Shown: piece after piece, positions 1 to 19,108 of the stretch
How the letters are laid out: each line of letters opens with the position of its first letter
How positions within the stretch are numbered: the first letter of the stretch is position 1
Source: an uncultured Clostridia bacterium
GTDB taxonomy: Bacteria > Bacillota > Clostridia > TANB77 > CAG-508
DNA: 64,000 nt
Assembly: GCA_944386415.1 (NCBI GenBank)
Contig: CALXAY010000002.1
Span: 22,297 to 86,296, forward strand
Reading direction: 5' to 3'
The notes under the pieces: generated by a model
What the model was told of the DNA's origin: nothing
The model's input: the letters and a program-made list of their open reading frames with translations, nothing else
Database searches by the model: none
Translations under genes and position numbers: made by a program

Positions 1-24
1 TGCAACTTTAATTGTATTTTCCAT
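1..24 (-). CDS. 5' end of an unidentified gene directly downstream of the helicase/DUF1998 gene (runs off the window)
   Basis: ATG at 24-22 (MENTIKVA...) preceded by AGGAGG (minus strand, 31-36) that overlaps the TAG stop of the upstream ORF. Only 8 codons are visible. Confidence 0.35.
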
Positions 25-34
25 TTTTTACCTC

Positions 35-3000
35 CTAAATATTTTTGGCATCTTCTATATTTTTAATAATTTTGTATCCTTTTTCTATAAATGTTTGTTC
101 ACTTTCTTCAGCTTGAATATTTGTTAAATATACTGCTTTTTGATTTGGCCATAACATTTCACATTCAGCAATTACTACTCCATTTTCTTCTAATTCAAAT
201 CCTACTATATCAGGAGCAATAATATTATTTTTAATACATTCCTCTGCAAATTTCTTTGCATCTTCATCAAATATTTCCTGCAATTTTTCATTCCAGTTTT
301 GATCTACCATATCAGTTGTTACTGTTTCAGTCGTAACATTTACAATATTTAATTTATTATATGTATTATTAATAATACCTGTTGTGCTTAATCCATAGAA
401 ATATTCACTAAATTGCATTACATTATAGAAATTCCAAAATCCATTCCATTCTTTCTTATAATTATCATCTCTTAATATGTTTTCATCATGTAACTCGATA
501 AATACATATGGATATTGAGGCTCTTTTTTAACGCCATCAATTCCAGCATATACATAGATTGCAGGATGTAATTCTTTTGGTATCCATGTTCCAAATAATG
601 TTTTACCAAATTCTTTTTCGTAATTTGAATTCATATTATTCATAAGTTTTGAAATATCTTCATTCCATAAATCAAAAGCATCTTGTTTTTTTGATTTTTC
701 GGCATCTATTAAAGACCATGAATATGCACTTGCATGAATTTTAAACAATTCCTCTGCATTTTCATTTTCTAAGTATTCTGCTAATAGCTCCATAGCATCT
801 ACCTTTGATGGTTTTATTTTTTTTGCTTTTTCTGTAATCATCTGATTATACATTCTAGTTCCAGATGGCATTTTTTCAGGTAATAACGTATCTGTGGCAT
901 AATCTTCAACATGTTTCAATTTATTTTTTACATCATCAAAAGTTAATGACCATACTCTATACTTACCGCTTCTTCTAATTGCTTCTCTTTTTAAAGTATC
1001 ATCATCTGTAATGTCTTTATGATAAGTAAATCCATCTGTAAATACTGCAATTGGTAATTGACCTTTTGCATCTTTAGAAGGCCACATTATAAAATCAGGT
1101 TTGCACTTAACTTTTACTCCTTGACTCTCGTCTAATGTTACTTGAGGTTCTATCTCCCATCTACAATTACCAATTTTTAAAATATATCCTTCTTTATTAT
1201 TTACAAAGTCTTTGTTTATAGTTAATTCTCTACTGTCAGTTTTAAGTAAAGCTAATGCCTCAATAAACATATTTTCAAGTTCACTATCTGCTAATGTGTT
1301 TACTGGAATTTTATTTATAGTTTTTATTAGTCTTCTATTGTCTTTTCCGCTAACAATTTGTCTAAACATATTTAGTGCAACTGTTCTTGATATTGAACCA
1401 ATATTCCTACTTTGTCTATATCCATATAAGCAATGATAGCATCCATCTTTTTGTGGATCATCTTTACAAGTACAAGTTTCCATTACATGAATAGCTTTTT
1501 GAAATACTTCGATTAAAAAGTTATCATTTTGAATTAATTGTTTTAAATATCCAGTACCTCCTGGTACAGAATCATAAACAACTAAATATTCTTTTCTATA
1601 CTCTTCACCTTGAACTGGTGCTTCACATATACAGGTTCTTAAATGTTCAACATTTCCAAAGTACTCTTTCATTCCTAGCATAAAAGCTGCCTCAAAAGAT
1701 TCAACTTTTGTTCTTTCTGATACTAATGTTGTAGCAGGAATAAGCAATCTTAATGCCTCAGTAGATAATTCTCTATACAAGAATAAACAATTTACATAAT
1801 TTTCTGAATTAACTAGAGAATTTTTTACTTTACATGAATAAGTATGTAAAGGTTTGTTATCGTCGGTTTGGATTTTGCCACAATATTTACATATTTTAAA
1901 TCCTTTTCTGATACTTTCTACTCCACCTACGAACAATTTTTCCCCAGACAGTTGAGCTTCACCAAAATTTATTTCTCTAATTGTTGCTTTTTTTACATAC
2001 TCAAATCCAAAAGGAAATTCATTATTATTCATTTCATATGCTTTTTCAATATCTTTTTCGTCGTCTATATCTACTAATAGCTGTTTATTATAAAAAATAG
2101 TTTTTCTATCATCACTTGCATCATCAATGTGGCTATCGTTATCATTCATATTTGAATAAACAAGATTTGCTTTAAGCATAGACCTTATTTGTCCTTTATC
2201 TGCCCATGCAGGACTTCCGCACTCTGGGCAAGAAGCTGTATGGTTTCCATCTATTTCAATTTCAGCGTGAGCACAATTAGGGCAAAGTCTCCATGAAGTT
2301 ATATTAGATGATACTAAATCAACCTGATCAATTTGAAGCTTTCTTCCAGCAGCATAAAATGTATTTAATGGTGCGAATTCGCTTATAGCACTTGATGATG
2401 GTCTCTTAAATTCATAAGTCAATTTACTCCATTTTTTTGTTTCAGAACTATCATTATCTTCTTTTTTTCTAAGTATAGCCTTTAATGTGATTCCTTCTTC
2501 CGGAAAAGCATAGTTAGGTAATAGTCCTTCATCTGATAAAAAGTTAAAAACATCTTTGTTAGTCATATCTTTAACAACTCTTGATAATGCTTTTCTTTCA
2601 GCTTCTAATTCTTTTTTCTCTTCGTCAAAAGCTGAATCGTGAGGTCCGTTTTCTATTTTTTCTATTTGCTTTTTCAAGTCATTTATATTATCCATTAACG
2701 ATTCTTTTTGCTTTTTTATAGCATCAAATGTTCTATAAATCTTTAAATACATAGAGCCTTCATCTGATTCAGCACCATTAGCAAATGAATATATTTCGCC
2801 TTTAGTTATGTCTGTAATATCTGGAAATAACTTAAAAAATTCTGATAATAAATTTGACAAATTATTTTGAGTATAATTTATAAAATTGTATGGAAATTGA
2901 TTGCTATCTCTATCATTTAATTGATTGATACATTTACCAACATTCTTTGGAATTGCAGTTTCAGGTACTCCACTTTTAATCCAATTATCAAAACAATATG

Positions 3001-6000
3001 CTATAAATTGTCTTTCAAGAACTGCAGAAGCATTCAAAAATATTTTTGGAGCTTCAACCTCTCCATCTATCATTTCCATTGGACTTGCATAAAAATACAA
3101 ATCATGAGGCACAGCATTTGCAACTGTTACTATTAAAGCATTTCCATCTTTTCTTCCTGCACGTCCTGCTCTTTGCAAATAATTTGATTGAACAGGTGGC
3201 ATACTACAAAGAATAACTGTTGACAAATTACCTATATCAATACCCATTTCAAGTGTCGGAGTACATGATAAAATATTTATATCCCATGGTTTTTGTTCAT
3301 CTTTTTTATGTTTAAATATTCTTTCAATTTCTTCTCTATTACTTCTACTTAATAATCCGGTATGCTCCTCTGCAACGATTCTTCTAATATCTCCATTACA
3401 ATATAAATTATGATAATAATCAAAATAGTTATTCTCTATTTTTTCTATTATCCCAAAACAATTGCTTGAAGGACATAAAAATTCATTTAATAATTTGCTA
3501 TTTTCTTTACTTATAGTATAATATTGTCCGCATTTATTGCATTTATAAGTTTCAACATTATTAGAAATATAAATATTTTTTTCATTTAATCCATAAACAT
3601 ATATGTTTTCATTTAATTTAATTTCTTGAATAATTCCTACTTTTTTTAATTCGTTAATTGCATTAATAAATACACTTCTATCTAATCCAGCATTTGTCAA
3701 TACTAATTCTATAGGCAATATTGATTCAATTTCTTTTAAATATTTCGATTTTTCGTTGTCTATATCGCAAAAGTTTTTATTTTTTATTCCACTTTGCTTA
3801 CACAAAAATTCAGGTACATTTCTTGATGAATTCTTACCTGGCATCCATCTCATCCATTGTGAAGATAGTAAATAATCTTGTCCACCTTTTTGCAAATATT
3901 GCTCATAAGCTAAATCATAAATTGCACCATTATATTTCATTTTATTTAATATTGTGATAATGATATTTTTAAATAAATCTATATTTAGTAAAGAAGAATT
4001 TCCATATTCATTTATAATTATTTCTCTTAATTCATTAGAAACTTCTTCAACTTTATTATTTGGAAAATGCATAACAGAACTATATGTTTTTTCAAGAGTT
4101 CTACCAATTCTTGAAGTTAGACCATATTCAAGTAATATTTCATATTTAAGCCTACTATCAATAAATCTAACCAATAATCTAGATGAATCATTTTCTTGTA
4201 GTTTTCCTGTCTCTTGCATATTGTTATATGCATCCATCCATACTAAATTTGGTGGAATAAATAAAGAAACATATTCTTCAATTGTAAGTTTTTCTTTCCA
4301 ATATTTTATAAACTCATTTTGAAAATCATATAAATTTAAATTATTTCCTTTATCATCAACAAATTTTTGTATTGCACTTCTCAAAGAGAATTTCCATGTT
4401 CTTGAATTAAAGAATCCTGCTCTATGTGCTGCATCTTGTACATTATCAGAAAAGGTCAACGCTTTTTTATCATCATTAAATGTAGATGTGAACATTTGAG
4501 ATACTGTAGCACTAATTGCTGTCGCACTTCTTAAACCTAGCAATGAGATACTAGATTTGCTTTTACAATGTGGACAAACATAATGCTTATGATTTTTACT
4601 TCCTGCACTTATGACTTTAGGAAATATAACTGGTATAGTATCTGCACCACATGATGAACAACTATGCGTTTTTTCATCTCCTAAATCTATTTGTAAGCAT
4701 TCTGGGCAAATGAATCCCTTATAAAAACCTGCTTTTTCTTTCTCATGATTATCAGGATAAACAAATAATATTTTGTCATTATAATTAAAGAATTCATTAT
4801 AGAATGTATTTAAATCATATACTTTTCCATTTTGTCTTGCATCAGGAATAGTTACCCAGCCAGTATAACCACAATCTCTACAATTAATTATTGGTAAATA
4901 ATGAGTTGATTGTTCTTTATTTAAATCTGTTGCCAAAGCATATTCAACATTATTTTTGCTCACTTTACCAACTACTCTTCTTAATTCTCTAAACCATAAT
5001 TGTGTAGTAACTGTTAAAAATGGTCTTATTTTTCCTCCAACTAATGTCCTTGAATAAGAAATTAAAGCAAATAATGTATCAATAGCAAATTGAGGTTCAC
5101 TTACTTCATTAAGAAATGGATATGAACTTTTTAATTCAGAAATTATATAGTTATCTTGAATATATTTGTTCTTCATCAAAGTAAGCATAGATCTTGTAAA
5201 ATTATGTTCTAATAATCTTTTTCCTAATTCTACTTTTCCTTCATCAGTTAATACTTTATTCTCGTCAAAATCTGTAATCCATGCTTTAACTGCTAATTTT
5301 ATAAATCCGTTAAATTCATCTTTTTCATAAGCTTTATATAATTGGTTTATTTCATCATTTGTTGGTACTTTAAAATCTTTTATATCTTCTACAAAAAATT
5401 CTTCGGGATTTAATCTATCTTCTGTGATAACAGAATCATCATTAAATTTTTCTCCAAAAATTTCACTAGCATATTGAATAATTTTTGAGTTATCTTCGCC
5501 ACTTCCTATTGTGGCAGAAGTTCCTACCCCACAAATATAATCTTTAGGCGTTCCTAATCTTGATTTTAATCTTCTTAATAAACAAGCTAAGTCTGTACCT
5601 TGAGCACCATCAAAAGTATGCAATTCATCTACAACGATATATTTTAAAGTATCTTCTTTATTTTCTTTCCAAATAGAAGCATCTTTTGGTCTAACTAATA
5701 AATAATCAAGCATTTTATAATTTGTTAATAAAATATCTGGAGGGTTTGATAGTAATGTTTCATGGTCTGTTATTACAAAATCCTTTCCCATTACCATCGT
5801 TGATTTACCTTGCTCTTCACCACCAACATACATTCCAACAGTAACATTACCTTTTAATTTGCTATTGCCATAAATCTCTTCAGCAATACGTCTAGCTTGA
5901 TCTGTTGCTAATGCATTCATAGGGTAAATGATTAAAACTTTTACTCCTCGTTTTTCTCTGTGTTTATAACAATAATCTAGTGTAGGAAACATGAAACATT

Positions 6001-6310
6001 CTGTTTTACCAGAACCCGTTCCAGTTGCTACTATTGTAGATACTGGATTATCTATCGCCAATCTTTTAAATGCTTTATGTTGATGAACATAAGACTTATA
6101 GTTAATTGTTACTGCCTCAAAATCGTCTTCTTCATCTGAAGTTCTAAATGGCATTTTTACTGCAATATAAGGTTCATGATAAACCGAATCTTTAGTTTTT
6201 AATAATTTATCAATTGAACCTTTGAAGCAATCATTTGTCATCGGAAATGTTGCTTCTATATAATCACTTAATCCTTTTTCAAGTTGTCTTGAAAGTATTG
6301 ATGGTAACAT
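35..6310 (-). CDS. drmA: Giant DEAD/DEAH-box helicase fused to a DUF1998 (MrfA-type zinc) module and a C-terminal DUF559/Vsr-like nuclease-type module; DISARM DrmA+DrmB-like
   Basis: Helicase motifs: Walker A ATGTGSGKTE, motif II VVDELH, motif III TSAT, motif VI YLQRAGRAGR. Several Cys-pair zinc-ribbon inserts (CRDCGYTGW, CPECLQ..CSSCG, CPHCKSK). DUF1998-like block: CPNCAH..CPECGS, DSVPGGTGYL, CYHCLYGYRQSRN. C-terminal block: KPDFIMW..AVFTDGFTYH..LKREAIRRSGKYRVWSLTFDDV. Start lies 3 nt after the methylase stop. Confidence 0.6.
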   Translation of the reverse strand: MLPSILSRQLEKGLSDYIEATFPMTNDCFKGSIDKLLKTKDSVYHEPYIAVKMPFRTSDEEDDFEAVTINYKSYVHQHKAFKRLAIDNPVSTIVATGTGSGKTECFMFPTLDYCYKHREKRGVKVLIIYPMNALATDQARRIAEEIYGNSKLKGNVTVGMYVGGEEQGKSTMVMGKDFVITDHETLLSNPPDILLTNYKMLDYLLVRPKDASIWKENKEDTLKYIVVDELHTFDGAQGTDLACLLRRLKSRLGTPKDYICGVGTSATIGSGEDNSKIIQYASEIFGEKFNDDSVITEDRLNPEEFFVEDIKDFKVPTNDEINQLYKAYEKDEFNGFIKLAVKAWITDFDENKVLTDEGKVELGKRLLEHNFTRSMLTLMKNKYIQDNYIISELKSSYPFLNEVSEPQFAIDTLFALISYSRTLVGGKIRPFLTVTTQLWFRELRRVVGKVSKNNVEYALATDLNKEQSTHYLPIINCRDCGYTGWVTIPDARQNGKVYDLNTFYNEFFNYNDKILFVYPDNHEKEKAGFYKGFICPECLQIDLGDEKTHSCSSCGADTIPVIFPKVISAGSKNHKHYVCPHCKSKSSISLLGLRSATAISATVSQMFTSTFNDDKKALTFSDNVQDAAHRAGFFNSRTWKFSLRSAIQKFVDDKGNNLNLYDFQNEFIKYWKEKLTIEEYVSLFIPPNLVWMDAYNNMQETGKLQENDSSRLLVRFIDSRLKYEILLEYGLTSRIGRTLEKTYSSVMHFPNNKVEEVSNELREIIINEYGNSSLLNIDLFKNIIITILNKMKYNGAIYDLAYEQYLQKGGQDYLLSSQWMRWMPGKNSSRNVPEFLCKQSGIKNKNFCDIDNEKSKYLKEIESILPIELVLTNAGLDRSVFINAINELKKVGIIQEIKLNENIYVYGLNEKNIYISNNVETYKCNKCGQYYTISKENSKLLNEFLCPSSNCFGIIEKIENNYFDYYHNLYCNGDIRRIVAEEHTGLLSRSNREEIERIFKHKKDEQKPWDINILSCTPTLEMGIDIGNLSTVILCSMPPVQSNYLQRAGRAGRKDGNALIVTVANAVPHDLYFYASPMEMIDGEVEAPKIFLNASAVLERQFIAYCFDNWIKSGVPETAIPKNVGKCINQLNDRDSNQFPYNFINYTQNNLSNLLSEFFKLFPDITDITKGEIYSFANGAESDEGSMYLKIYRTFDAIKKQKESLMDNINDLKKQIEKIENGPHDSAFDEEKKELEAERKALSRVVKDMTNKDVFNFLSDEGLLPNYAFPEEGITLKAILRKKEDNDSSETKKWSKLTYEFKRPSSSAISEFAPLNTFYAAGRKLQIDQVDLVSSNITSWRLCPNCAHAEIEIDGNHTASCPECGSPAWADKGQIRSMLKANLVYSNMNDNDSHIDDASDDRKTIFYNKQLLVDIDDEKDIEKAYEMNNNEFPFGFEYVKKATIREINFGEAQLSGEKLFVGGVESIRKGFKICKYCGKIQTDDNKPLHTYSCKVKNSLVNSENYVNCLFLYRELSTEALRLLIPATTLVSERTKVESFEAAFMLGMKEYFGNVEHLRTCICEAPVQGEEYRKEYLVVYDSVPGGTGYLKQLIQNDNFLIEVFQKAIHVMETCTCKDDPQKDGCYHCLYGYRQSRNIGSISRTVALNMFRQIVSGKDNRRLIKTINKIPVNTLADSELENMFIEALALLKTDSRELTINKDFVNNKEGYILKIGNCRWEIEPQVTLDESQGVKVKCKPDFIMWPSKDAKGQLPIAVFTDGFTYHKDITDDDTLKREAIRRSGKYRVWSLTFDDVKNKLKHVEDYATDTLLPEKMPSGTRMYNQMITEKAKKIKPSKVDAMELLAEYLENENAEELFKIHASAYSWSLIDAEKSKKQDAFDLWNEDISKLMNNMNSNYEKEFGKTLFGTWIPKELHPAIYVYAGIDGVKKEPQYPYVFIELHDENILRDDNYKKEWNGFWNFYNVMQFSEYFYGLSTTGIINNTYNKLNIVNVTTETVTTDMVDQNWNEKLQEIFDEDAKKFAEECIKNNIIAPDIVGFELEENGVVIAECEMLWPNQKAVYLTNIQAEESEQTFIEKGYKIIKNIEDAKNI

Positions 6311-6313
6311 TTA

Positions 6314-9300
6314 TTATTCCTCACTTTCATATTTATCTTTAAAAAACTTCCATGCAGTTTTATAATCTTCTATCCTGTCACATTTATCAAATGGTGCAAC
6401 ATACTCTATTGTTCTTTCACTAGGTCCTCCTGGCAAAGTATCATCCATAATTGTTTGAGTGAATATTTTACCTTCTTTAGTATATTTCACCTGCTCAAAT
6501 TCATTTCTAGTTAAACCAACATTAGTTAAACTTCTATTATTCGTAAAAACAATATTTCCCTTTTGATCATACCAAGTCTCATCTTCATATTGCTGAGCTA
6601 CTGGAAACTGTATTTTATAAATATCTATTAATTGCTCTAATGACATTCCTAATTGCATTGCTGTTAATACATCAATTTCAACTAATGCTTGTCTTCGTTC
6701 AAATTCCGTTTTTAAGGAATATGAGAAATCCCATTCTTGTTTTAGCACTGAAAAATTTTGTTTTAATCTTGTATCTTTTTTTGACCAACTATCATATATG
6801 TTTTTATTATTCCAACATTTTTCCCATATTTCTTTATAATAATCAGTTAAACAATTTAACAACATGCTTCTCAACACAATAGGCTGTATATACTTACCTG
6901 AAAGTATAGGCAATATTTTTGCAGATTTATATAAAAAACTGGCATTGCCTAAAACTTTTATCAAGAAGTCATATGGTACAGAAGAAAATAATCCAGATAA
7001 TATACCTAATGTATACTGATCTTCAGTAATTAGACCATATACAGTTATTATATGACATACATTTGGAGGAATTATAGCACTAGTTAACGTTCTCTCACTA
7101 GATAAGTTAAGCATTTTTCTAGTAATTAATCTATATCCAGAATTGTATTTTTTATTCCAAATAGTATTAGGTATACGTTTAATATATTCTTCCATACTAC
7201 AAGCAGGAGAATAATTACATCTCTGTAACGTCTTATTGTTAATATTATTTAAATCAATTTTATCAAAAGCTCTTCTAGTTGAACAATCTCTTTGGGAACT
7301 TTGAAATAATGGATTTGCAACACCAAAATGTGGACCGGATAAAATTGAATCAACTAAATCTTTTGGAAAATGAACATTTCTAACAATAGTTCCATCTTCT
7401 TGAGCACCAGTTTCATCAAAGCAAATGCTACCAAAAATATCTTGCCTATTTCCAATTTTATTTTTTTCTTTATTAAATTTTCTCAATACTTCTAACAAAT
7501 GCTTACCATGTAAACTAGGTAATCGAGCATCAAATGGGTTTTGACTATCATCAAATAAATTTGCAAATAATTTTAAGTCATCATTATTAATAGTTAAAAT
7601 TCTTTGAGTTGTACCATGTATCTCCCATTTTCCATCTTTATCTTTAATACCAGGTAGTTCATTATCTTTATTAATATAGCACTCATCTATTGTTGTAGGA
7701 TAAAACAAATTAAAAATAGCATCAAATGTATCCGAAATTTGATTAGAATATATGTTTAAGCTAAATTTCATCATGTTTCCAACTTCTGCAAATAATTTGA
7801 ATTCGTTTTCAAATCTAAAGTGACATCTCAATCTTGGATAAAGCTTTTCTCTCAGAATACTTCCGTTAGGATCATCATATACACCATTAGGATGAATAAA
7901 GCCAGAAACTCCATTATTATTAGCAAGATACCAACTTAATGGTATAAAACATCTAAATAAGTTTGTTTGCTGTCCTTTTAATAATGGATAATTTTGCATA
8001 GCATTAAAATAATTAATCATTCCATTCATACTAGAAAATTCGGTATAATACTCATTCCTATTTAAATATTTTTCTAATATTTTTTCACGTTCATCCTTAA
8101 TTGTTTTTGCATTTAAATTTCTTATGTATAATTTAGGATTAAAATCTGCTAAAATTAAACTTTCATTCCAATTAATTTTTATCCATGGTGGATTTCCAAT
8201 TATTAAATCAAATCCGCCATGTTCTTTAAATAGATCTGCAAATTCGAGTTCCCAATGCATAAAATGGTTTTCTTCTGATATTTGTCTTACAAGAGCCAGT
8301 CTTTCCTCATTTTCACATAGTTGGTCAAGATTTACTTTTCCTAAATCATCATATTTTTTCTCTAGGTCTAATGCAATTTGCTCAATATCTGTATCAAACA
8401 TAGAAGTTTGATATCCATTTTTTGTCCATACTCCCTTCTGACCTTCTTGTTTTACAGACATTATTCCACCTTCTAATATTAAAGACATATCATAAATATA
8501 TTCACTTCTAGAAGGTAATAAGTCTGCCTTATCTATTGGCCAAAACCATAATGCACACCAATAGTCCATTGCGAACTTCAATCTTGCATAAGGTCCTGCA
8601 TTATTCATATGTTCTGTTTTATATATCTTTGTATATATTTCATCTTTTTGTCTAATAGTTGTATGAGAATCTTCAGTAGTATCTTCATGGCCATATATAG
8701 ATAATTTATCAGCAGTTTTTTCTTCAATTTCTTTCCTTAATTCAACTTGCTTGTCCCATAAGTTATCTATAACATCTGAAATTCTTAATAGTGATTCCAC
8801 TTCATCTGAATTACATGGTTTTATAAATTCTCTATTCCATGTTTTCATTTTATCTATATTATCTTTTTCAAGTTCTTTAATAACTTTATCATTATAAGAA
8901 CACATGCCTGGATCTCCAAGTAAAAAATGGTACACTTGAGGTCTCTTAGTTTTTAAATCTTTTACATTCCTTTCTTCTGATAAAGGAACTCTTGTAGGTT
9001 CTGAATTATACCATTGCAAATTACTATTAGTAGCCATTATTTGATCTTTGTTATATACTTGTCTTCTAGCACCAATTAATGAATTTCCATTTACTATTTG
9101 TATATTAAACCAAGGAACATACCTGCCTTTAAAAATTGTATTTAACCATAATGAAACTTCTGCTAATTCTACTGCAGTTGGATTTAAGTCAACACCATAT
9201 ATATTTTTATCTGCAATATACATTTTTACTTTTTGAACTTCTGTATACCTTTGTTCATATGGAATTAATTCGTTTTTTTCTTCTTGTTTTTTGTTTATAT

Positions 9301-11050
9301 ATGCATCTGCTAATTGATTTATTGTTTCATTCAAGAATGCAGCACTTCCCATTGCTGGCTCGCATATTTTTAAATTTAATATATCATCAGCAGTTTTATC
9401 TTTTAATAATTCTTTTAATGCATATTTAACTAAGCATTTCGTTAAAACTTCAGGCGTATAATAAGATGCAGATTTTTCTCTTTCTCTTCCTGCAAGTCTA
9501 TATATAAATGTACCTCTTTCATATTTACGAGGTTTTCCTCTATTCGGTCCACTTTCATATCTTACTCTCTCATCCTCTTTATAGTTTTCTAACTCTGCTT
9601 CAGATACAAAATATCCAACTTCTAGTTCATCAAAATGTTCTCCATTCCTTTTCACTTCATAAAGCATTTGTTCAGCAATAAATCCTCTATAAGATAATAA
9701 TGCTTCATATACAGAACCTAATTGATTTATTCCTAAATTAGAATATGATATTCTACCTTTTCCAGTATTATTTCCTCTTGATATACTCATTAACTTAATT
9801 ATCTTTATCATAGCAGAATTACGCAATTTACTATTAGATATTAATTTAGTTAATTCAGGATCAAATATATGCGCTTTTAATGGTTCCATTATAAAAGTAT
9901 CATGTATAGACTCCATTTTTTCAGCTGACAATAATTGTTCTTGATTAGAAGGGTATCCATTATAAATTATATTAAATAACTTATTTATACAGTCGCCTAA
10001 ATAAAATCCTTCTTCAATTTCTTCTGTATTTTCATTAAAATTATCTACTACATCTCTTAATGTTTCTAAAGAATAACCTTTTAAATATGATATATCTTTT
10101 ATTGGAGCATATCCCAATTCTGGTCTTGCTTCAATAAATAAGACAAACAACATTCTATACATATATCTTAAACATTGCATAGTTAAATCAGAGGGATCGA
10201 TTTTTAATTCTGGATTACTATTTTTATAATAATATATAACTTCATTTCCCAATATTTCTATACATTCTCTTAATGCATATTTTAGATCTTGAGAAATACC
10301 AGCAGCGTTTTTAGTTGAATTTTCGTTAAGTTCATCTAAAAGAGAAGTTCCTTCTAATGGGCACAAAGATTCTCTATGTAGTAAAATTGACATTGTTTGT
10401 AAAGTTGTTTCTTCTTTTCTTGAAAAAATTTCTTTTAAATCAAATCCTATATATCTTTTTTCATTCCATTTATTTCTATCAATAAGTGATATTCCATTCA
10501 TACCAATAACAATAATCCATCTTGGTGGATTACTATTAGCAAATAATGATTTTGTTACCAAGTCTTCTGCATTAAAATCACTATTTATATATATATCACA
10601 TGTTTCTTCATCAAAGTCGCCACTGAATAATTTTCCATAAAGTACGTCTTCATCGTCATCAACATTTTGAGAAAGTACAATCCAAAGTAAAGGATTTCCA
10701 TTATTGTCTTTAATTTCTTTATATACAGGTACTTTAATATCATTATCAATATCAACTATTATTGGTGATGATGTATAATATCCAAGTGAAACAAGATATT
10801 TATCAGCCATCTCTTTTATAACTACTAAATCACCATTATTATTCGCTTTTAAAAACTTATCATGTGCTACATAATAACTTTTAGCATCTTCTTTTAATTG
10901 GCTCCAAGGTGTTTTTACATCTTTGCTTGCTTTAGCTACATCTCTCCAACTAGATATAGTTGCATTTGCATTATCTTCAAAAATAGATGAGAAATAATGA
11001 TTAGTATAATATTCATTATAATTATTTATTCCAGTATAAGTTTTAGCCAT
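6314..11050 (-). CDS. drmMI: Large N6-adenine DNA methyltransferase (Eco57I/type IIG-like), DISARM DrmMI-like
   Basis: SAM-binding motif I-like EPAMGSAAFL and catalytic motif IV IIGNPPW. The 1578-aa ORF abuts the SNF2 gene stop (11052) and the helicase start (6310). Confidence 0.6.
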   Translation of the reverse strand: MAKTYTGINNYNEYYTNHYFSSIFEDNANATISSWRDVAKASKDVKTPWSQLKEDAKSYYVAHDKFLKANNNGDLVVIKEMADKYLVSLGYYTSSPIIVDIDNDIKVPVYKEIKDNNGNPLLWIVLSQNVDDDEDVLYGKLFSGDFDEETCDIYINSDFNAEDLVTKSLFANSNPPRWIIVIGMNGISLIDRNKWNEKRYIGFDLKEIFSRKEETTLQTMSILLHRESLCPLEGTSLLDELNENSTKNAAGISQDLKYALRECIEILGNEVIYYYKNSNPELKIDPSDLTMQCLRYMYRMLFVLFIEARPELGYAPIKDISYLKGYSLETLRDVVDNFNENTEEIEEGFYLGDCINKLFNIIYNGYPSNQEQLLSAEKMESIHDTFIMEPLKAHIFDPELTKLISNSKLRNSAMIKIIKLMSISRGNNTGKGRISYSNLGINQLGSVYEALLSYRGFIAEQMLYEVKRNGEHFDELEVGYFVSEAELENYKEDERVRYESGPNRGKPRKYERGTFIYRLAGREREKSASYYTPEVLTKCLVKYALKELLKDKTADDILNLKICEPAMGSAAFLNETINQLADAYINKKQEEKNELIPYEQRYTEVQKVKMYIADKNIYGVDLNPTAVELAEVSLWLNTIFKGRYVPWFNIQIVNGNSLIGARRQVYNKDQIMATNSNLQWYNSEPTRVPLSEERNVKDLKTKRPQVYHFLLGDPGMCSYNDKVIKELEKDNIDKMKTWNREFIKPCNSDEVESLLRISDVIDNLWDKQVELRKEIEEKTADKLSIYGHEDTTEDSHTTIRQKDEIYTKIYKTEHMNNAGPYARLKFAMDYWCALWFWPIDKADLLPSRSEYIYDMSLILEGGIMSVKQEGQKGVWTKNGYQTSMFDTDIEQIALDLEKKYDDLGKVNLDQLCENEERLALVRQISEENHFMHWELEFADLFKEHGGFDLIIGNPPWIKINWNESLILADFNPKLYIRNLNAKTIKDEREKILEKYLNRNEYYTEFSSMNGMINYFNAMQNYPLLKGQQTNLFRCFIPLSWYLANNNGVSGFIHPNGVYDDPNGSILREKLYPRLRCHFRFENEFKLFAEVGNMMKFSLNIYSNQISDTFDAIFNLFYPTTIDECYINKDNELPGIKDKDGKWEIHGTTQRILTINNDDLKLFANLFDDSQNPFDARLPSLHGKHLLEVLRKFNKEKNKIGNRQDIFGSICFDETGAQEDGTIVRNVHFPKDLVDSILSGPHFGVANPLFQSSQRDCSTRRAFDKIDLNNINNKTLQRCNYSPACSMEEYIKRIPNTIWNKKYNSGYRLITRKMLNLSSERTLTSAIIPPNVCHIITVYGLITEDQYTLGILSGLFSSVPYDFLIKVLGNASFLYKSAKILPILSGKYIQPIVLRSMLLNCLTDYYKEIWEKCWNNKNIYDSWSKKDTRLKQNFSVLKQEWDFSYSLKTEFERRQALVEIDVLTAMQLGMSLEQLIDIYKIQFPVAQQYEDETWYDQKGNIVFTNNRSLTNVGLTRNEFEQVKYTKEGKIFTQTIMDDTLPGGPSERTIEYVAPFDKCDRIEDYKTAWKFFKDKYESEE

Positions 11051-11051
11051 T

Positions 11052-13886
11052 TTATACCTCCATTAATACAGCAATTATTTTAATAAAAGGTTTATCTTCT
11101 GCTTCCAAACTATCTTTATACCATTTGTAATACTCATTAAAAGTACTTTCAATATTGTTTTTCTTTAATTGCTTTGTTCTGCTTAAACCTTCTGTTTCAA
11201 ATAAACTGATTTGATTATATTCTAATTGCTTCTCTTTTAACTTATCTAATTTTTGCATATATGATAAAACTTCTGTACTTATTACATCGTCATATTCTCT
11301 AAATGCATCAGACAAGATTTCTTTTATTTTATTGATAGCTAATCCCATATTTGATTGTGCCATTTCTAGTTCTTTCTCTTTTATTAAATCTTCATTAGGA
11401 ATATTTTTATCTAGTAGTTTAGTTTTTTCAAATAAATCCTTTATACTCATTACTTCAATAATTTCATTATTTTTCACCTTAACACCAAACCACTCATCAA
11501 TTACTGGAGTAGATTTTCTATTAAATATTGAACCAGAAATTATATAAATCAAACTTTTATCTGTATTATTTGATTTTATACCAAGTACAGGAGCTTCTCC
11601 TCTCCCAAATAATAATTTTGATTTATCATTTATTATGCTAAAAATCGGATGTAATCTCCATAAATATTGTGCTTGTGACCATGCAGTTTCATTTAAATCA
11701 TTTTGCATACTTCTCTTCATTTCGTCCATTATGAATTCTTTATCAGTGCTTAGTTTTAATTCGTCATCTGGAATTGCTTCATCTGGAAGTTGAGTTTTTA
11801 GCCTTCTTTTTATTTCAGGAGTTAGTTTTATTTCGATACCATCTGCAACTCCTAAATCAGTGTATGAATGTTCACTCTCTGTATTGAATTCAGATAAAGC
11901 TGTTTCTATATAATCCTTATCACTAAATATAGTTAAATCATTTGTAGTTTCATTTTTTAAACCTTTTTCAATATCTTCCTGACGCATAAGTATTTCAAAC
12001 GGATCAAATTCTTTTGATGAATTATCTAATTGTTTTTCAAATTCTTCTGAAGACATATTAGTTTCAATAACATTTGCTACTTCTTGCTCTTCTTCCTCAA
12101 CATTAAATTTTCCCATAAGTAATGTAGGATCACCAATATTTTTATATGCTTGTTCTTCCTTTTTAATAAGAATTTCCATTATTCTAGTATCGCCTTTTAT
12201 CTTTTCATTCTTACTCTGAATTAAGAAATATCTAATATCTGGCTTTTTAGTTTGACCATATCTATCAATTCTTCCATTCCTTTGTTGAAATACCATTAAA
12301 GACCATGGAATATCAAAATGAATCAATCTATGTGATAAATAATGTAAATTTATTCCTTCTGACGCAACATCAGATGCAACTAAAATTCTTATTGGTGATT
12401 CTTTTTTGCCAAATTCATCAACAATTTCTTGTTGCTCAACATCTGACATACCACCATACATCTCTTTAACTTGGTCTTCATTCATGTTAAGATCTTCTCT
12501 TAAATATTTTGCTAACCATTTCATTGTTTCTATTCTTTCGGTAAATATGACTATTCTATCATCTGTATCAGTATGCCAATTATATTCACTATTATTTAGA
12601 AGTTGCAATAATTGTTGATATCTAGAGAATGAATCCGGCTTAATTTGTTCTAATAAAGACTTCAATTCTTTTAAAGTATTTATGTCTTTAAATTTATTGT
12701 CTCCATATTTATTAATTAATTTTCTTAATCTTTCATCTATACTTTTAATACATGCTGCTGGAGAAGAAAATAAAGATTTTTCAAGGTTTGTCTTAAATAG
12801 TTGACCTGTAGCTTTCTTATTGTATGAATCCATTTCTAGTTTCATGTCTGCAAAGTAATCATATACTCTCTCTTCAACATTTGATGCATAACTTTTTTCT
12901 ATATTAACTTCTCTTTCTTGAAATGATGAAATTAATTGGTCATTGATATCACTTTTAAATCTTCTTACACACAAGCCCTTTATATCTTCTTTTGTATAGT
13001 CATGAGGATTCGCAATAGCAGTTGGATCTAACATATTCATTAGCGATGCAAAGCTTTCAGCTTTACCATCATGTGGTGTTGCAGATAAAAGAATTAAAGC
13101 ATCACCATTTTTTGATAATAATTTTGCAAGTTTAGATCTTTGACTTTCAGTTTGAGATATTCCTCTATCAGCGACATTATGGGCTTCATCTATTACGATA
13201 ATATCCCAGTGTGCATTTTCAAGATAAGTTCTATATTCAATATCTCTTTTTAATGTATCCATAGAAATAATTGTCTTATCATAATAGAAGAAAGGATTAT
13301 AATTTGAAGGTAAAGAATTTCTAATTTTTTGTATTTTACTTGAATCCAAACGGATTAAAGGAATAGAGAATCTATTCCACATTTCTTTTTGGAATTGCAT
13401 CATCATGCTCTTTACTGTAACAACAAGAATTCTTTTACCTTTTCCCCTTGCTATTAATTCAGACATTAAAATACCTGCTTCAAGAGTCTTACCAAGTCCA
13501 ACGCTATCAGCAATAAGAATTCTTTGTCTTGGCGTTGATAAACTCATGGTTGTAGGAACTAATTGAAAGTCCATTAAATCCATTGCTGCTTTGTATCCAA
13601 CATGAATTTTTGAATCTGTTGGTATTTTTTGTCTTAAATTACTTTCAATATATAATTTAGATTTTTTAAAAAGAGGTGATGTATCAGCGACTAATTTTGT
13701 TTGTGCAGGATCAACAATACTTACTTCCTCTAAATCTTCCAAAAATACGCTTTCTTTATCTTTAACTAATGGAGATATACCAGTACAATAAACTGCTTTA
13801 TTTCCAAAGCTATTGTTTTCAATCTTATTTATCATCCATTCTTCATCACGTACAATAATTCTTAAACCAGGCGCTAACTCAGACAT
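11052..13886 (-). CDS. drmD: SNF2-family helicase, DISARM DrmD-like
   Basis: SNF2 motifs DSVGLGKTLEAG (I), VIDEAHN (II), LLSATP (III), QQRNGRIDRYGQ (VI). First gene of the three-gene block, with GGAGG upstream of the ATG. Confidence 0.6.
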   Translation of the reverse strand: MSELAPGLRIIVRDEEWMINKIENNSFGNKAVYCTGISPLVKDKESVFLEDLEEVSIVDPAQTKLVADTSPLFKKSKLYIESNLRQKIPTDSKIHVGYKAAMDLMDFQLVPTTMSLSTPRQRILIADSVGLGKTLEAGILMSELIARGKGKRILVVTVKSMMMQFQKEMWNRFSIPLIRLDSSKIQKIRNSLPSNYNPFFYYDKTIISMDTLKRDIEYRTYLENAHWDIIVIDEAHNVADRGISQTESQRSKLAKLLSKNGDALILLSATPHDGKAESFASLMNMLDPTAIANPHDYTKEDIKGLCVRRFKSDINDQLISSFQEREVNIEKSYASNVEERVYDYFADMKLEMDSYNKKATGQLFKTNLEKSLFSSPAACIKSIDERLRKLINKYGDNKFKDINTLKELKSLLEQIKPDSFSRYQQLLQLLNNSEYNWHTDTDDRIVIFTERIETMKWLAKYLREDLNMNEDQVKEMYGGMSDVEQQEIVDEFGKKESPIRILVASDVASEGINLHYLSHRLIHFDIPWSLMVFQQRNGRIDRYGQTKKPDIRYFLIQSKNEKIKGDTRIMEILIKKEEQAYKNIGDPTLLMGKFNVEEEEQEVANVIETNMSSEEFEKQLDNSSKEFDPFEILMRQEDIEKGLKNETTNDLTIFSDKDYIETALSEFNTESEHSYTDLGVADGIEIKLTPEIKRRLKTQLPDEAIPDDELKLSTDKEFIMDEMKRSMQNDLNETAWSQAQYLWRLHPIFSIINDKSKLLFGRGEAPVLGIKSNNTDKSLIYIISGSIFNRKSTPVIDEWFGVKVKNNEIIEVMSIKDLFEKTKLLDKNIPNEDLIKEKELEMAQSNMGLAINKIKEILSDAFREYDDVISTEVLSYMQKLDKLKEKQLEYNQISLFETEGLSRTKQLKKNNIESTFNEYYKWYKDSLEAEDKPFIKIIAVLMEV

Positions 13887-14220: not shown

Positions 14221-15600
14221 TTATCTCACATACTTTCCTGTTTTTGTCTTTTCATTTTCATGCTCTTTAGGATGTTCCTTCTCTTCCATCTCCCTGAGAT
14301 TTTCTCTCATTTTTATAGAATTATCATAAATAACATCACACATTTTAAGTTCTTTTCTAATTTTCTCAAGTTCTGAAGTAACAGCAATTATTTGCTTTGT
14401 TATTAACTCCTTATCGTCATCTTCTTTTAAATTTTTTCTTTTATAATAAAGTCTATTCCTGCAATTAAGATATTTTTGTAATTCTTCTTTCTTCTCATTT
14501 TTTACATCATTAATTCTACTTAGTGTTTCTAACTTATATTTACACATAAATCTAATTTGTTCTGAATACATATCCATTTTTCTGATACCTGCTCTCATCT
14601 CTGGTGTTAGTCTGAAGCTTTGATTATATTTAGGATATAACCCTAATAAGTGCTTATAGTAGTAATATAATGCTATTATTCCTTTAGGCTTATATATCTT
14701 TTTAAAGCTCCTTTTAGTTGTATATTTTTTAGCAGGTGGTATTCTATATGGAATAATATCTTCATAATTTACAAGATTATGAGAAAGTATTCTTTGTTTT
14801 ATTCTATATAAGGAATATTCTTCTCCAAATGCTCTTTCAACTCTTATATTCCTTTTGTGATATTTATCTCTTATACGCAATTTATCTGCTCTATAATAGT
14901 AGCTATATCCCATAGACTTTAATATACAATTCATATCACTTAAAGCATAAGCATGTTCTATTGCATAATCTAAATCCTCCTTTGCAAATTTATAATAATC
15001 AGATTCTTTCATTGATTTCCTATAAAAGTTTTCAAAATTTATTCCTGACCTGCATGTTTTTTCTGGCAAAACACTTAAACCATATTCCTCACAAAGTTCA
15101 TCTGAAGTTCTTCTTAATAGTGCTGTATTCGCTAGATTAGAATAATACTTAAATCCATCTTTAAATGATACAGAATTTAATACAAAGTGATTATGAATAT
15201 TCTCTGTGTTTAGATGTGTAGATACTACTACTTGAAATCTATCTCCCCACATTTCTTCTGCAAGTCTTACACCTATTTCATGTGCTATCTCTGGTGTAAC
15301 TTCTCCTGATTTAAAAGACTGATAACCATGGAATGCTAATATACCTCCTTCCTTACCTTTAATCTTTTTTATAAATTGCATTTCATCAACTGCTGTTTCT
15401 AACTTACAATTTATTGCTGTAGTATAAAATTGTTTCTCTGTTTTATCTGGGTTAGTAGCATACATTAATAAATCTCTTACACTATAAAACTGATTCATAT
15501 TAACATCTGCATATTCGTTTTTAGTCTTCTCCTCATCTGTTGCATAATTTACTACTTTGTCAATTCTTTGTGTCACTTTCCATATACTTGTTGTTGCCAT
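14221..15600 (-). CDS. MobA/VirD2-family relaxase (mobilization nuclease)
   Basis: N-terminal relaxase domain with histidine triad STHLNTENIHNHFVLNSV and a long coiled C-terminus. GAGGAGG lies upstream of the ATG. Confidence 0.7.
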   Translation of the reverse strand: MATTSIWKVTQRIDKVVNYATDEEKTKNEYADVNMNQFYSVRDLLMYATNPDKTEKQFYTTAINCKLETAVDEMQFIKKIKGKEGGILAFHGYQSFKSGEVTPEIAHEIGVRLAEEMWGDRFQVVVSTHLNTENIHNHFVLNSVSFKDGFKYYSNLANTALLRRTSDELCEEYGLSVLPEKTCRSGINFENFYRKSMKESDYYKFAKEDLDYAIEHAYALSDMNCILKSMGYSYYYRADKLRIRDKYHKRNIRVERAFGEEYSLYRIKQRILSHNLVNYEDIIPYRIPPAKKYTTKRSFKKIYKPKGIIALYYYYKHLLGLYPKYNQSFRLTPEMRAGIRKMDMYSEQIRFMCKYKLETLSRINDVKNEKKEELQKYLNCRNRLYYKRKNLKEDDDKELITKQIIAVTSELEKIRKELKMCDVIYDNSIKMRENLREMEEKEHPKEHENEKTKTGKYVR

Positions 15601-15761: not shown

Positions 15762-16004
15762 TTATTCCTCATTTGAGATATAATTTACTTTATAAATATA
15801 AATTTTATTTCCAATTTTTCTTTTTAATTTGATTATTTTATTGCATCCATTATTTCGATTTTTAGAAATATTTTTTCTATATTTTCTGTATAATTCATAT
15901 CTCATTCTTCTGTTTTTTCTTCTTCTATATTCCTTTAAGTTTCTAATTAATTTTTCATTTCTGTGACCATAATTGTCTCTATTTATTTCATAAATAACTC
16001 TCAT
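15762..16004 (-). CDS. Small highly basic hypothetical protein
   Basis: 80-aa ORF with GGAGG 8 nt upstream of the ATG and its own terminator. Composition is Lys/Arg/Asn-rich and no family was recognised. Confidence 0.35.
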   Translation of the reverse strand: MRVIYEINRDNYGHRNEKLIRNLKEYRRRKNRRMRYELYRKYRKNISKNRNNGCNKIIKLKRKIGNKIYIYKVNYISNEE

Positions 16005-16100: not shown

Positions 16101-16923
16101 TTATACTAACTCTTTTTTTGTACTTTTTAATGTTATTCCATAACACATTTGGTACAATTTTTCTATCGTTGCATTTGCTAAATCTTTGTCCTGACTCTTC
16201 TCAAATCTTTCAATTAATCCCTTCTTATTGAACCTTGTTGTTATAACAATAGGTAACCCTTTTTCGCATCTATTTTGAATAATTGTATATAACTTTTCTA
16301 ATGCCCAGTTGCTTATTTTTTTCTGTTCCTAAGTCATCAATAATTATTAAATCTACATTAGAATATAGTTCAATTAATTCATTTTCAGACTTTGTATTAT
16401 CTCTAAAAGTTTCCTTAATCATATCTAATAATGTTATTAGTCTACCCATTAAAACAATCTTGTTTTGTTCAATTAATTTATTTGCAATAGCAGATGCTAA
16501 ATGAGTTTTTCCTTGTCCTGACATGCCCGTTATTATCAGTCCATTGTCCTCATTATTCTTTATACATTTTTCTGTATAATCTTTTGCAACTTTTATTGCC
16601 ACTTTATTATTTGGATTAATTCTAAAATTTTCAAAGTTCTTAGATTGTAAATTCTTTTCCATATAGCTTTGCTTATAGATTTTATTAATTATTTCTCTAT
16701 AACGACTTCTCTTTTGTTTTTCAAATTCAATTTTATCTTGTTTATTCCAATATTCTTGAGCCTTTATACAATTACACCTTTCATATTCTATAAATTCAGG
16801 AGATATATTCACATATAAATAATCAAGTCCTATTGGATTCAATTTTTTACCACAAAATTCACATTTTTTAAGTCTATTGTGGATAGTTTCATTTAATTTG
16901 ATATTCTCTAAACCCATTTTCAT
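16101..16923 (-). pseudogene. DnaC/IstB-like AAA+ helicase-loader ATPase, frameshifted in a homopolymer
   Basis: Walker A GMSGQGKTHLA and Walker B LIIIDDLGTEK. After a 7-nt A run (plus-strand T run 16316-16322) the family-typical continuation ISNWALEKLYTIIQNRCEKGLPIVITTRFN... is in another frame and ends at 16101. Confidence 0.6.
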
Positions 16924-17416
16924 TCTCCTCTCTTTTTGTATTTTCTTTTCTTATTTCTTTTGTTATATTTTCTTCTCTTTTCTCTTCTGTACCGTTACAT
17001 AACGTTACCGTAACGTTACTTTTTTCAATTTCACTCTTATTCTTTTCACGATATTTTCTTTGTCTTTCTCTGTTTTGAATTTGATAATTCTCATATTTAT
17101 CAATACTTTGATACTTGTCCCAGTTTTTTATTAGAAATGTTTCCCCTTCTTTAATTAACATTTCTAATTCTAGAAATTTTTCCAATATTTTGCTCATTTT
17201 TTTCGAAGATTTTCCCATAATTTTCGAAAAATTTTGGATTGAAATCGGATTATTTCCAATTATTAATCTTCCTCCAGCTCCACATTCAACTGCTAATGAT
17301 AATAATTGAATCCACACTCTAAAGTATGTATCCCCATCTTCTAATCCTAGGATTAATTGGATTTTTCTGTTGTTAAAAATATTCTGTTCTAACTTAAACC
17401 ACTGAATATCATACAT
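16889..17416 (-). CDS. Phage replisome organizer N-terminal domain protein (DnaD-like)
   Basis: N-terminus MYDIQWFKLEQNIFNNRKIQLI..GDTYFRVWIQLLSLA matches the replisome-organizer pattern. Overlaps the DnaC-like start. Confidence 0.55.
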   Translation of the reverse strand: MYDIQWFKLEQNIFNNRKIQLILGLEDGDTYFRVWIQLLSLAVECGAGGRLIIGNNPISIQNFSKIMGKSSKKMSKILEKFLELEMLIKEGETFLIKNWDKYQSIDKYENYQIQNRERQRKYREKNKSEIEKSNVTVTLCNGTEEKREENITKEIRKENTKREENENGFREYQIK

Positions 17417-17831: not shown

Positions 17832-19070
17832 ATGGAAAGAAAAAATAATATTGGAATATCTTTTGATGCTTCATATTTTTCTCAAATATTCATTCACACT
17901 TCTGGTGCATATTTGAGTAAACCAATTAGTAAAAGCAACAATAAATATTTAGCAAATTTTAAAACTATACCACCTGATGAGAGATTTGGACAATTAGTTC
18001 TAGAACTTGAAAAAACAACTTCTGAATCAGAAAGAGAAAGAATAATAAATGAATTAAAAGAAATTACAGAAATAGATAAATCAGTTGAATCTATGCCTCT
18101 TACATTTAAAGATAATATTGAAAAATTAAATGGATATATAGTTTTTGAGCCAATGACTGCCGTTGAACATTATGATTTATCTTTGTTAGATTTTATTAGT
18201 TATGATTTTGATGTTTTCAATGATTATATATTGTTTTTTATCAATTTCTTTGATTATTTTATAGATAAATTAGATAATAATGATATTAAACATATAGAAT
18301 TAGATACTTTATATCCTGTTAATGAAATAGTTGAAATAGCAAAAAAATACTATGAAAAAGAAAAAAATAACTTAATTTATTATCAAGGTTTATTTAAAAA
18401 ATGTGTTAATTTTGTTTACAATATTGATAATTATTTTAATTTTAAAGATTTAACGCATAAGCAAAGATTCTTTTTGTATAATCAATTATATCCAAATACA
18501 TTTGCAGAATTTAAACAAGATTTTCATTCAACAGATTTATTAGAATATAAATATAATGATTTTCCAATAAGACCTGAATTAATTCAACTTGAAGATATAA
18601 ATACTATAATTTCTGCAATTGAAGAAGTAGATCCTACAGGTAGAAAACTTAATAGCTTACAACAATTTGAAACTACAAATTTATTTACAAGTTTTTATAT
18701 TACACTATTTAATGTAGTAGCTATTAACAAAATGCACATCAAAATATGTGGTAATTGCCAAAAATATTTTATAACACATAAAGAAACTGTCACTTATTGT
18801 GATAGAGTTATAAATAATGATCTAACATGCAAAGATATTGGTAATAAAGAATATCAAAAAAGGAAATTAGAAAGTGATACTACTTATGATAGATATAGAA
18901 AAATAGGTAGTAGAAAACAACTTAGAGCTACTCGTAACCCTGAAATAGATTTCTATAAAAAAGATTTGGAACAATATAGAAAGATAGGAAAACAAATGTA
19001 TAAAGATGTTTGCTCTGGAAAGATTACTAATGAAGATTTTGAAAAATGGATAGATGAACAAGACAAATAA
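17832..19070 (+). CDS. Hypothetical protein with C-terminal Cys-cluster (zinc-ribbon-like)
   Basis: 412-aa ORF transcribed divergently from the excisionase-type gene, with CGNCQKYF..YCDR..CKD near the C-terminus. No family recognised. Confidence 0.5.
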   Translation: MERKNNIGISFDASYFSQIFIHTSGAYLSKPISKSNNKYLANFKTIPPDERFGQLVLELEKTTSESERERIINELKEITEIDKSVESMPLTFKDNIEKLNGYIVFEPMTAVEHYDLSLLDFISYDFDVFNDYILFFINFFDYFIDKLDNNDIKHIELDTLYPVNEIVEIAKKYYEKEKNNLIYYQGLFKKCVNFVYNIDNYFNFKDLTHKQRFFLYNQLYPNTFAEFKQDFHSTDLLEYKYNDFPIRPELIQLEDINTIISAIEEVDPTGRKLNSLQQFETTNLFTSFYITLFNVVAINKMHIKICGNCQKYFITHKETVTYCDRVINNDLTCKDIGNKEYQKRKLESDTTYDRYRKIGSRKQLRATRNPEIDFYKKDLEQYRKIGKQMYKDVCSGKITNEDFEKWIDEQDK

Positions 19071-19100
19071 AAGTAGTACAATGCAAGTACTACTTTTATT
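19071..19100. terminator. Bidirectional hairpin terminator between convergent genes
   Basis: Perfect 9-bp stem AAGTAGTAC/GTACTACTT with a 7-nt loop. A-rich on the 5' side and T-rich on the 3' side. Confidence 0.55.
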
Positions 19101-19108
19101 TATCTTAT

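Follow-up and report, generated by a model that had tools for sequence, protein, structure and literature searches.

The closest described relatives of the locus reported here are the ARMADA systems ('disARM-related Antiviral Defense Array'), defined by Bell et al. 2025 (bioRxiv 10.1101/2025.09.15.676423; mBio 2026 PMC13463889). In type II, four genes stand in strict order and encode a BrxHII-like SNF2 protein (ArmA), a PglX-like methylase (ArmB), a YprA-like helicase (ArmC) and ArmD, by definition a GajB-like helicase that carries a RelE-like domain at its N-terminus as a fusion. Type II ArmC was described with a BrxA-like insert, zinc modules and a predicted active C-terminal Vsr-type nuclease, the latter often trailed by inactivated EEP-like and Vsr-like domains (Bell et al. 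2025). According to the ARMADA papers, ArmA is related to DrmD, ArmB to DrmMI and ArmC to DrmA plus DrmB, ArmC being a fused DrmAB that also bears Vsr-type nuclease domains; in the published trees, ArmC groups with Druantia, not with DrmA (Bell et al. 2025). The DNA analyzed here (the window) is a stretch of 64,000 nucleotides (nt) from an uncultured Clostridia bacterium (GenBank assembly GCA_944386415.1, contig CALXAY010000002.1), with a guanine-cytosine (GC) content of about 28% throughout. Positions 1-13886 very probably hold an intact ARMADA type II anti-phage operon, armA-armB-armC with the first codons of armD, and the locus is a further example of an already published system, not a new class.

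In E. coli, the four ARMADA II genes jointly protect, directly and non-abortively, against many double-stranded DNA phages, with no membrane damage and no metabolic shutdown (ARMADA papers). Deletion of any single arm gene abolished defence, cells without armB being viable but phage-sensitive. Defence also required the NPPW of ArmB and the ATPase motifs of the other three proteins, and ArmC K110A and D234N (RecA1 motif equivalents) abolished it (ARMADA papers). Across 426 E. coli islands armB was the most variable gene (ARMADA papers), a variability that suggests armB as the specificity determinant.

Assignment of the operon to ARMADA type II

An open reading frame (ORF) scan exactly reproduced the coordinates of three abutting minus-strand genes, of 944, 1578 and 2091 amino acids (aa), that an earlier note made by a model from the letters had listed (Table 1). 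The genes are separated by 1 nt (armA/armB) and 3 nt (armB/armC, 6311-6313). A fourth gene, which the note had starting at position 24, was borne out by an ATG at 24-22 preceded by AGGAGG. An exact look-up with the 2091-aa protein returned 23 metagenome contigs, of which six (L001-L006) were fetched; these were 99.99-100% identical to the window across the overlap, and all six carried a complete 699-aa armD, 10 nt past the armC stop. In the gap between the relaxase gene and armA, a promoter scan gave 11 candidates versus 19 expected, i.e. chance level or lower, and a terminator scan gave none.

The reference set was ECs_5261-5264 of E. coli O157 Sakai, which are armABCD by synteny with EDL933 z5899-z5902. 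By BLASTP, ArmA was 46% identical to its E. coli counterpart over the full length (944/952 aa, 791 bits), ArmB 40% over the full length (1197 bits), ArmC 34% over a 2158-column alignment (1299 bits) and ArmD 42% over the full length (582 bits). These alignments show orthology to E. coli ArmA-D along the whole of each protein, and armA-armB-armC-armD on one strand matches the type II order. Counterparts were present for all residues whose change causes loss or reduction of defence in E. coli (Walker A and B of ArmA, ArmC and ArmD; NPPW and GxG of ArmB). What defines type II was found in each of ArmA, ArmB, ArmC and ArmD, weakly so for the Vsr part of ArmC. The assignment is also favored by the surroundings, with Thoeris, HTH-Fic, Hachiman, a relaxase and an integrase, and by the synteny of the four genes in other genomes given below. 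The E. coli systems (NCTC 12900, EDL933, Sakai) have the same four proteins, order, catalytic motifs and ArmC architecture, and likewise lie on an integrated mobile element beside other defence systems. They differ in their enterobacterial host, the host here being an uncultured bacterium with 28% GC, and in their carrier: a Zorya II-Druantia III-ARMADA II island and satellite-like/HUH-Rep elements in E. coli, versus a relaxase-bearing element with Thoeris and Fic here.

The earlier note had placed the genes in class 1 DISARM, that is, drmD-drmMI followed by a drmA-drmB-nuclease fusion with DrmC missing or replaced. The likeness is real: in both, an SNF2 gene and a large N6-adenine methylase gene precede a YprA-family helicase with DUF1998, unmethylated DNA is the presumed target, and ARMADA itself is DISARM-related by definition. 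The best PADLOC 2.0 match of ArmA was DrmD (E 4.5e-106), DrmMI models matched the methylase (E 2.5e-58), and the DUF1998/MZB domain is present in the 2091-aa protein (PF09369). However, with the NCBIfam models ArmA scored 373 bits versus a DrmD cut-off of 610, and ArmC 24 and 17 bits versus DrmA cut-offs of 999 and 950, in the Helicase_C part only, where the PADLOC DrmA match (E 1e-17) also lies. The OB-CON-DUF1998 region alone matched DruE models and no DrmB model at E<0.01. It is not a separate gene here; helicase and OB-CON-DUF1998 form one polypeptide of the Druantia/ARMADA clade, and the published trees join ArmC to Druantia rather than to DrmA. Class 1 DISARM has a separate PLD protein (DrmC), whereas no PLD domain was found in any operon or element gene scanned (Pfam/PADLOC), and the locus instead has a fused PD-(D/E)xK (Vsr-like) domain and an extra, constant fourth gene for a RelE-UvrD helicase, which DISARM lacks. 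A class 1 DISARM variant is on this evidence very improbable, membership being refuted by the failed DrmA, DrmB and DrmC tests. Kinship with DISARM stands as the ARMADA papers describe it. The note was right that no PLD (DrmC-like) gene is visible beside these genes, the fourth gene at the window edge being the RelE-like/UvrD helicase, and the DrmA-DrmB-nuclease fusion that the note described matches published ArmC and is not novel to this locus.

For the 2091-aa protein, the top PADLOC models were DruE1 (E 4e-114) and DruE3 (E 5e-103), which would favor a Druantia-type system centred on a DruE helicase. DruE of Druantia III is the nearest characterized helicase relative of ArmC and, like it, has a YprA-like DExH helicase, BrxA-like and zinc inserts, MZB/DUF1998 and a C-terminal nuclease region. 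Set against this, the 2091-aa protein matched DruE of E. coli O157 Sakai only locally, in two places (125 and 103 bits), as compared with 1299 bits for the ArmC that this strain encodes, and the tail of the 2091-aa protein is PD-(D/E)xK-like, not PLD. Druantia III has PLD-like domains in DruE and a DruH partner, and is without methylase, SNF2 and UvrD; here the partners are SNF2, methylase and UvrD, with no DruA-D, DruH, DruM, DruF or DruG. A Druantia system was rejected as barely credible, the locus having a DruE-like helicase without any Druantia partner gene. Druantia III occurs alongside ARMADA II in E. coli and is not beside armABCD here.

The methylase, read by itself, could be taken for a stand-alone type IIG (Eco57I/MmeI-like) enzyme beside unrelated helicases, since the PADLOC model REase_MTase_IIG PDLC03614 spans it end to end (E 2.9e-265) and Pfam gave Eco57I and weak MmeI_Mtase matches. 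However, Pfam found no nuclease, and no match of any kind, in ArmB 1-500 and 1090-1578; the four genes are syntenic across phyla, and each of the four E. coli genes is required for defence. This reading, scarcely to be believed, was rejected on the four-gene synteny, the lack of a flanking nuclease and the E. coli gene requirement. The earlier note had named a type IIG set as an alternative; 'type IIG' is indeed the best PADLOC model of the methylase, though as a label for the ArmB family and not for a stand-alone enzyme.

Partial likenesses extend to two other systems. ArmB is PglX/YeeA-like and ArmA BrxHII/RapA-like, as in BREX, and loss of the PglX methylase of BREX likewise abolishes defence while cells survive. 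The helicase core of ArmD resembles GajB of Gabija. The locus differs from both in having no PglZ, BrxC, BrxL, BrxA or GajA, and GajB is without the RelE/YoeB-like N-terminus.

Table 1. Coordinates of the operon, its protein features and the carrier element in the window, followed by armB-armC inserts in the ARMADA II loci of other species (L-numbered; positions are those of each locus)
Feature	Position	Strand	Residues, basis or remarks
armD start	1..24	-	8 codons (MENTIKVA); ATG 24-22, ribosome-binding site AGGAGG 36-31; remainder beyond window
armC	35-6310	-	2091 aa; ORF scan
ArmC variable C-terminal extension	38..907	-	residues ~1802-2091; two more folded domains in model
ArmC Vsr/DUF559-like PD-(D/E)xK domain	908..1294	-	residues ~1673-1801; motif, profile and structure comparison
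ArmC VFTDGFTYH	1019-1045	-	translation
ArmC KPDF	1091-1102	-	translation
ArmC OB-CON-DUF1998 region	1427..2284	-	PF09369 MZB (former DUF1998), residues 1541-1628, E 3.4e-10
ArmC DUF1998 Cys4	1430-1474	-	C1613/1615/1624/1627; alignment
ArmC OB-region zinc inserts, two		-	C1343/1346/1361/1364; C1474/1477/H1489/C1493; alignment
ArmC Cys4 module, then RecA2	3149..3541	-	Cys 924/927/946/951; Helicase_C 978-1054, Pfam
ArmC motif VI QRAGRAGR	3152-3175	-	translation
ArmC zinc-binding insert	4511..4903	-	residues ~470-600; CxxC pairs 477/480, 535/538, 551/554, 579/582
ArmC RecA1 (DEAD)	5504..6085	-	residues 76-269; Pfam
ArmC DELH	5618-5629	-	translation
ArmC Walker A GTGSGKT	6002-6022	-	translation
armB	6314-11050	-	1578 aa; ORF scan
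ArmB Eco57I/N6_Mtase core	7847-9508	-	Pfam
ArmB NPPW	8183-8194	-	residues 953-956; translation
ArmB motif I EPAMGSAAF	9335-9361	-	residues 564-572; translation
armA	11052-13886	-	944 aa; ORF scan
ArmA Helicase_C	12255-12617	-	Pfam
ArmA SNF2	12714-13523	-	Pfam
ArmA DEAH	13179-13190	-	translation
ArmA GLGKT	13485-13499	-	translation
MobA/VirD2 relaxase	14221-15600	-	domain search
80-aa ORF	15762-16004	-	ORF
DnaC/IstB-like ATPase	16270-16923	-	domain search
Replisome organiser	16889-17416	-	domain search
DUF6076 protein, 412 aa	17832-19070	+	between replication genes and Thoeris
424-aa gene	19109-20383	-	13 nt downstream of Thoeris pair
ThsA, Macro-domain type	20396-21289	-	Thoeris
ThsB TIR	21289-21789	-	Thoeris
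Tyrosine integrase	22016-23218	+	domain search
Right att repeat, 46 nt	23486-23531	.	reverse complement of tRNA 3' part, CAT anticodon loop to ACCA
armB-armC insert, L012	7083-9980		
armB-armC insert, L013	6819-9958		
armB-armC insert, L030	4992-8273		
armB-armC insert, L032	7390-8724		
armB-armC insert, L057	5787-9852		
armB-armC insert, L060	8066-9964		
armB-armC insert, L062	6379-8304		
armB-armC insert, L063	8397-9992		
armB-armC insert, L075	8585-9967		
armB-armC insert, L085	5953-7311		
armB-armC insert, L087	8010-9290		

Domains and conserved residues of the four proteins

Pfam domains confirmed the SNF2 helicase, the NPPW N6-adenine methylase and the joining of helicase and DUF1998 in one polypeptide, as the earlier note had read them. 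Conservation in ArmC was read from a 10-sequence alignment reaching E. coli. GTGSGKT, DELH and motif VI were invariant, as were all Cys pairs and quartets at 477-582, 924-951, 1343-1364, 1474-1493 (with H1489) and 1613-1627; the zinc-ribbon inserts claimed in the note are therefore real. The insert at residues ~470-600 has its counterpart in a beta-barrel zinc-binding module, and the OB region has two inserts in type II ArmC and one in type I (Bell et al. 2025). Residues 290-470 gave no Pfam match.

The tail of ArmC carries the motif S-E-L-E...E-P-Q...K-P-D-F...V-F-T-D-G-F-x-Y-H...D-D-T-L-K-R-E-A-I-R-R-S, in which D1739, D1759 and H1764 were invariant and T1758 nearly so in the alignment. With hhalign, the catalytic block of E. 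coli Vsr, PDF...FTHGCFWH, aligned with PDF...FTDGFTYH (E 5.5e-4, probability 30%). For an AlphaFold model of the Vsr-like domain (pLDDT 79.6), the best PDB matches were TnsA and BstEII, both PD-(D/E)xK (probability 0.77-0.84, E 0.05-0.3). A sequence-profile search of the PDB with this domain gave chance matches only, PADLOC gave no match to the tail, and Pfam gave no DUF559 there, the related MTES_1575 scoring E=0.04. The domain was accepted as resembling PD-(D/E)xK nucleases and as having a motif of the Vsr/DUF559 type, while the more specific Vsr label comes mainly from publication; the DUF559/Vsr-like tail of the earlier note is supported weakly by these results.

The model of residues 1660-2091 had a mean pLDDT of 87.6 and separate alpha/beta domains, and with the whole 432-residue tail model Foldseek gave a best E of 0.1, none significant. 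The published EEP-like and second Vsr-like folds were thus unconfirmed by Foldseek for residues ~1802-2091. In many ArmC relatives the alignment ends near residue 1795-1800, and the last ~290 residues are therefore a variable add-on, in agreement with Bell et al. 2025.

ArmB matched Pfam Eco57I/N6_Mtase, with the weak MmeI_Mtase match given above, and is a PglX/YeeA-like gamma-class N6-adenine methyltransferase. ArmA matched SNF2-rel_dom and Helicase_C in Pfam, and RapA and BrxHII models. ArmD has UvrD-helicase and UvrD_C domains and is a GajB-like superfamily 1 helicase, with PADLOC matches to GajB and a 'NERD+UvrD' model and NCBIfam matches to PcrA, Rep and UvrD, plus a weak one to Txe/YoeB (TIGR02116, residues 22-81, E 5.4e-4). 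The catalytic residues of E. coli YoeB are Glu46, Arg65, His83 and Tyr84. With a 24-sequence profile of ArmD residues 1-110, the best PDB match was the YoeB mRNA interferase, nearly full length (E 0.047); E47, R61, R67 and H87 were invariant in the 24 sequences and Y66 and Y91 nearly so. Pfam gave a weak Gp49 match to the N-terminus and PADLOC gave none. From its residues, it is plausible that this N-terminal domain is an active RNase.

Carrier element, distribution and the armB-armC junction

The armABC(D) operon is cargo of an integrative mobilizable element of ~28.5 kilobases (kb). The relaxase, integrase and att repeats agree with the mobilizable island of the earlier note. The left att copy lies in L001 at 21251-21297, in direct orientation with 91-98% identity, just past TnpV and ~4.94 kb beyond position 1, and the length of the element follows from this pair of 46-nt repeats. 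The element is rightly termed 'mobilizable', as type IV secretion and coupling-protein genes were absent from those of its genes that were scanned. Searches of both ends of the element found no whole tRNA, and simple integration into an intact tRNA gene was therefore rejected; the pattern is better explained if the element entered a secondary site or the att of a neighboring element (tandem accretion of defence islands, a general proposal of Bell et al. 2025). The left flank outside the repeat differs among L001, L003 and L004, suggesting that islands are mobile and stack in tandem at a single att site; past the left repeat, L003 has PRiA4/ASCH genes.

Several further features of the element and its flanks were recorded. 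A second repeat, of 34 nt, lies just inside both ends (window 23358-23391, L001 21112-21145) and may be an integrase arm site. In the fetched contigs, HTH-Fic, two small genes and TnpV lie beyond armD; the SoFic-like HTH-Fic fusion (L001 18576-20288, PADLOC candidate PDC-S04, E 1e-106) and an unannotated 255-aa gene directly follow armD on the same strand in 6/6 contigs. Hachiman (HamA, E 1e-78, and a HamB-type helicase) stands past the left att repeat at L001 23797-26276; it was present in L001 and L002 and not in L003, and is therefore part of a neighboring variable island. Near 21250-21300, L004 shares a 17-nt core only (ACCTTCGGGTTATGAGA). Where the DUF6076 gene lies, the GC content of the window is at its lowest (20.7% at 18001-20000). 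The 424-aa protein next to the Thoeris pair had no Pfam or PADLOC match, and its gene could be a third Thoeris component or separate cargo. Outside the element, an 835-aa VWA-domain protein (59574-62081, minus strand) had 47 relatives at E<=1e-50 among 5.8 billion sequences. The host lineage appears to be poorly sampled, uncultured and of ~28% GC.

ArmC homologues numbered >7800 proteins at E<=1e-10; the best 120 were all ~2100 aa and >=51% identical, and included Dehalococcoides, Paenibacillus and Lachnospiraceae. Fusion of the DrmAB type defines the architecture of this family, which numbers thousands of proteins. The four-gene cassette was also found in Dehalococcoides mccartyi and Paenibacillus, and in a further genome examined beside those two the SNF2 gene was in fragments. 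A GTDB scan with one genome per species gave ArmC relatives in at least 592 species of Bacillota, Pseudomonadota, Cyanobacteriota, Acidobacteriota, Actinomycetota, Verrucomicrobiota, Bacteroidota and others, the closest locus among the matches listed being that of an Erysipelotrichaceae metagenome-assembled genome (58%). Synteny was counted in 80 kept loci of these. armD lay 3' of armC on the same strand in all 55 loci with >=4.5 kb downstream, and armA then armB lay 5' of armC in 38 of the 53 with >=9 kb upstream; in several others of the 53 (e.g. L030, L062), armA and armB were displaced, in part or completely, beyond the fetched flank by an insertion between armB and armC. In one locus (L009, GCA_942493365.1), the armA site at 2638-3787 holds short fragments (a 212-aa Helicase_C piece and small ORFs), armB, armC and armD are intact, and a 311-aa domainless gene stands between armB and armC; this operon is probably decaying.

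Between armB and armC, 0.9-5.2 kb of extra genes were observed in ~20 of 40 measurable ARMADA II loci of other species (Table 1). The inserts comprised GmrSD type IV, a Gabija-like OLD-TOPRIM and UvrD pair, AAA_21/AAA_15 ATPases, Schlafen/AlbA_2, a PLDc_2 protein, a ResIII helicase and a dynamin-like GTPase pair. With somewhat less than even confidence, the armB-armC boundary may be a conserved slot in which other defence genes dock, and under that reading the 3-nt junction of the window may be its empty 'ground state'. The ARMADA paper was not found to describe such a cargo slot in its main text.

Proposed mechanism and significance

As a best inference, ARMADA II is a methylation-gated helicase-nuclease machine. 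ArmB would m6A-methylate (N6-methyladenine) a short host DNA motif as a self mark and, like BREX PglX, would also license restriction as an indispensable member of the restricting complex, which as a whole would read unmodified sites. ArmA (RapA/BrxHII-like SNF2) would translocate on or remodel duplex DNA. DruE binds single-stranded DNA and unwinds 3'-to-5'; ArmC would load where unmodified invading DNA is single-stranded, at ends or gaps, move 3'-to-5' as MrfA and DruE do, and cut with its Vsr-type PD-(D/E)xK domain, its zinc modules possibly serving target recognition and assembly. ArmD (GajB-like UvrD with a RelE/YoeB-like domain) would add another DNA motor and might also cleave RNA.

Several points weigh against the assignment and this mechanism. 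The Vsr assignment of the ArmC tail is weak, as judged from its sequence and model, and the placement of ArmC in the ARMADA II clade is score-based (1299 vs 125 bits). PADLOC 2.0 (2023) has no ARMADA models and splits the parts into DrmD, type IIG restriction-modification and DruE. Phage protection needing all four genes was shown in E. coli systems only, a 2026 review puts ARMADA among systems restricting 'by unknown mechanisms', and we infer the methylation, single-stranded DNA loading and RNase steps.

With this locus, ARMADA type II, tested in E. coli alone so far, is extended to an uncultured bacterium of 28% GC, where it travels on a relaxase-bearing integrative element with Thoeris. The earlier note's reading was an independent rediscovery of the DISARM-Druantia 'missing link' published in 2025. 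Across the distance to E. coli, the needed catalytic residues, seven zinc modules, the Vsr-like motif and the YoeB-like residues of ArmD are conserved, and these features are the best mutation targets for studying the mechanism. In this low-GC branch, ArmB methylation may serve as the self mark and the YoeB-like domain of ArmD may be a real RNase arm.

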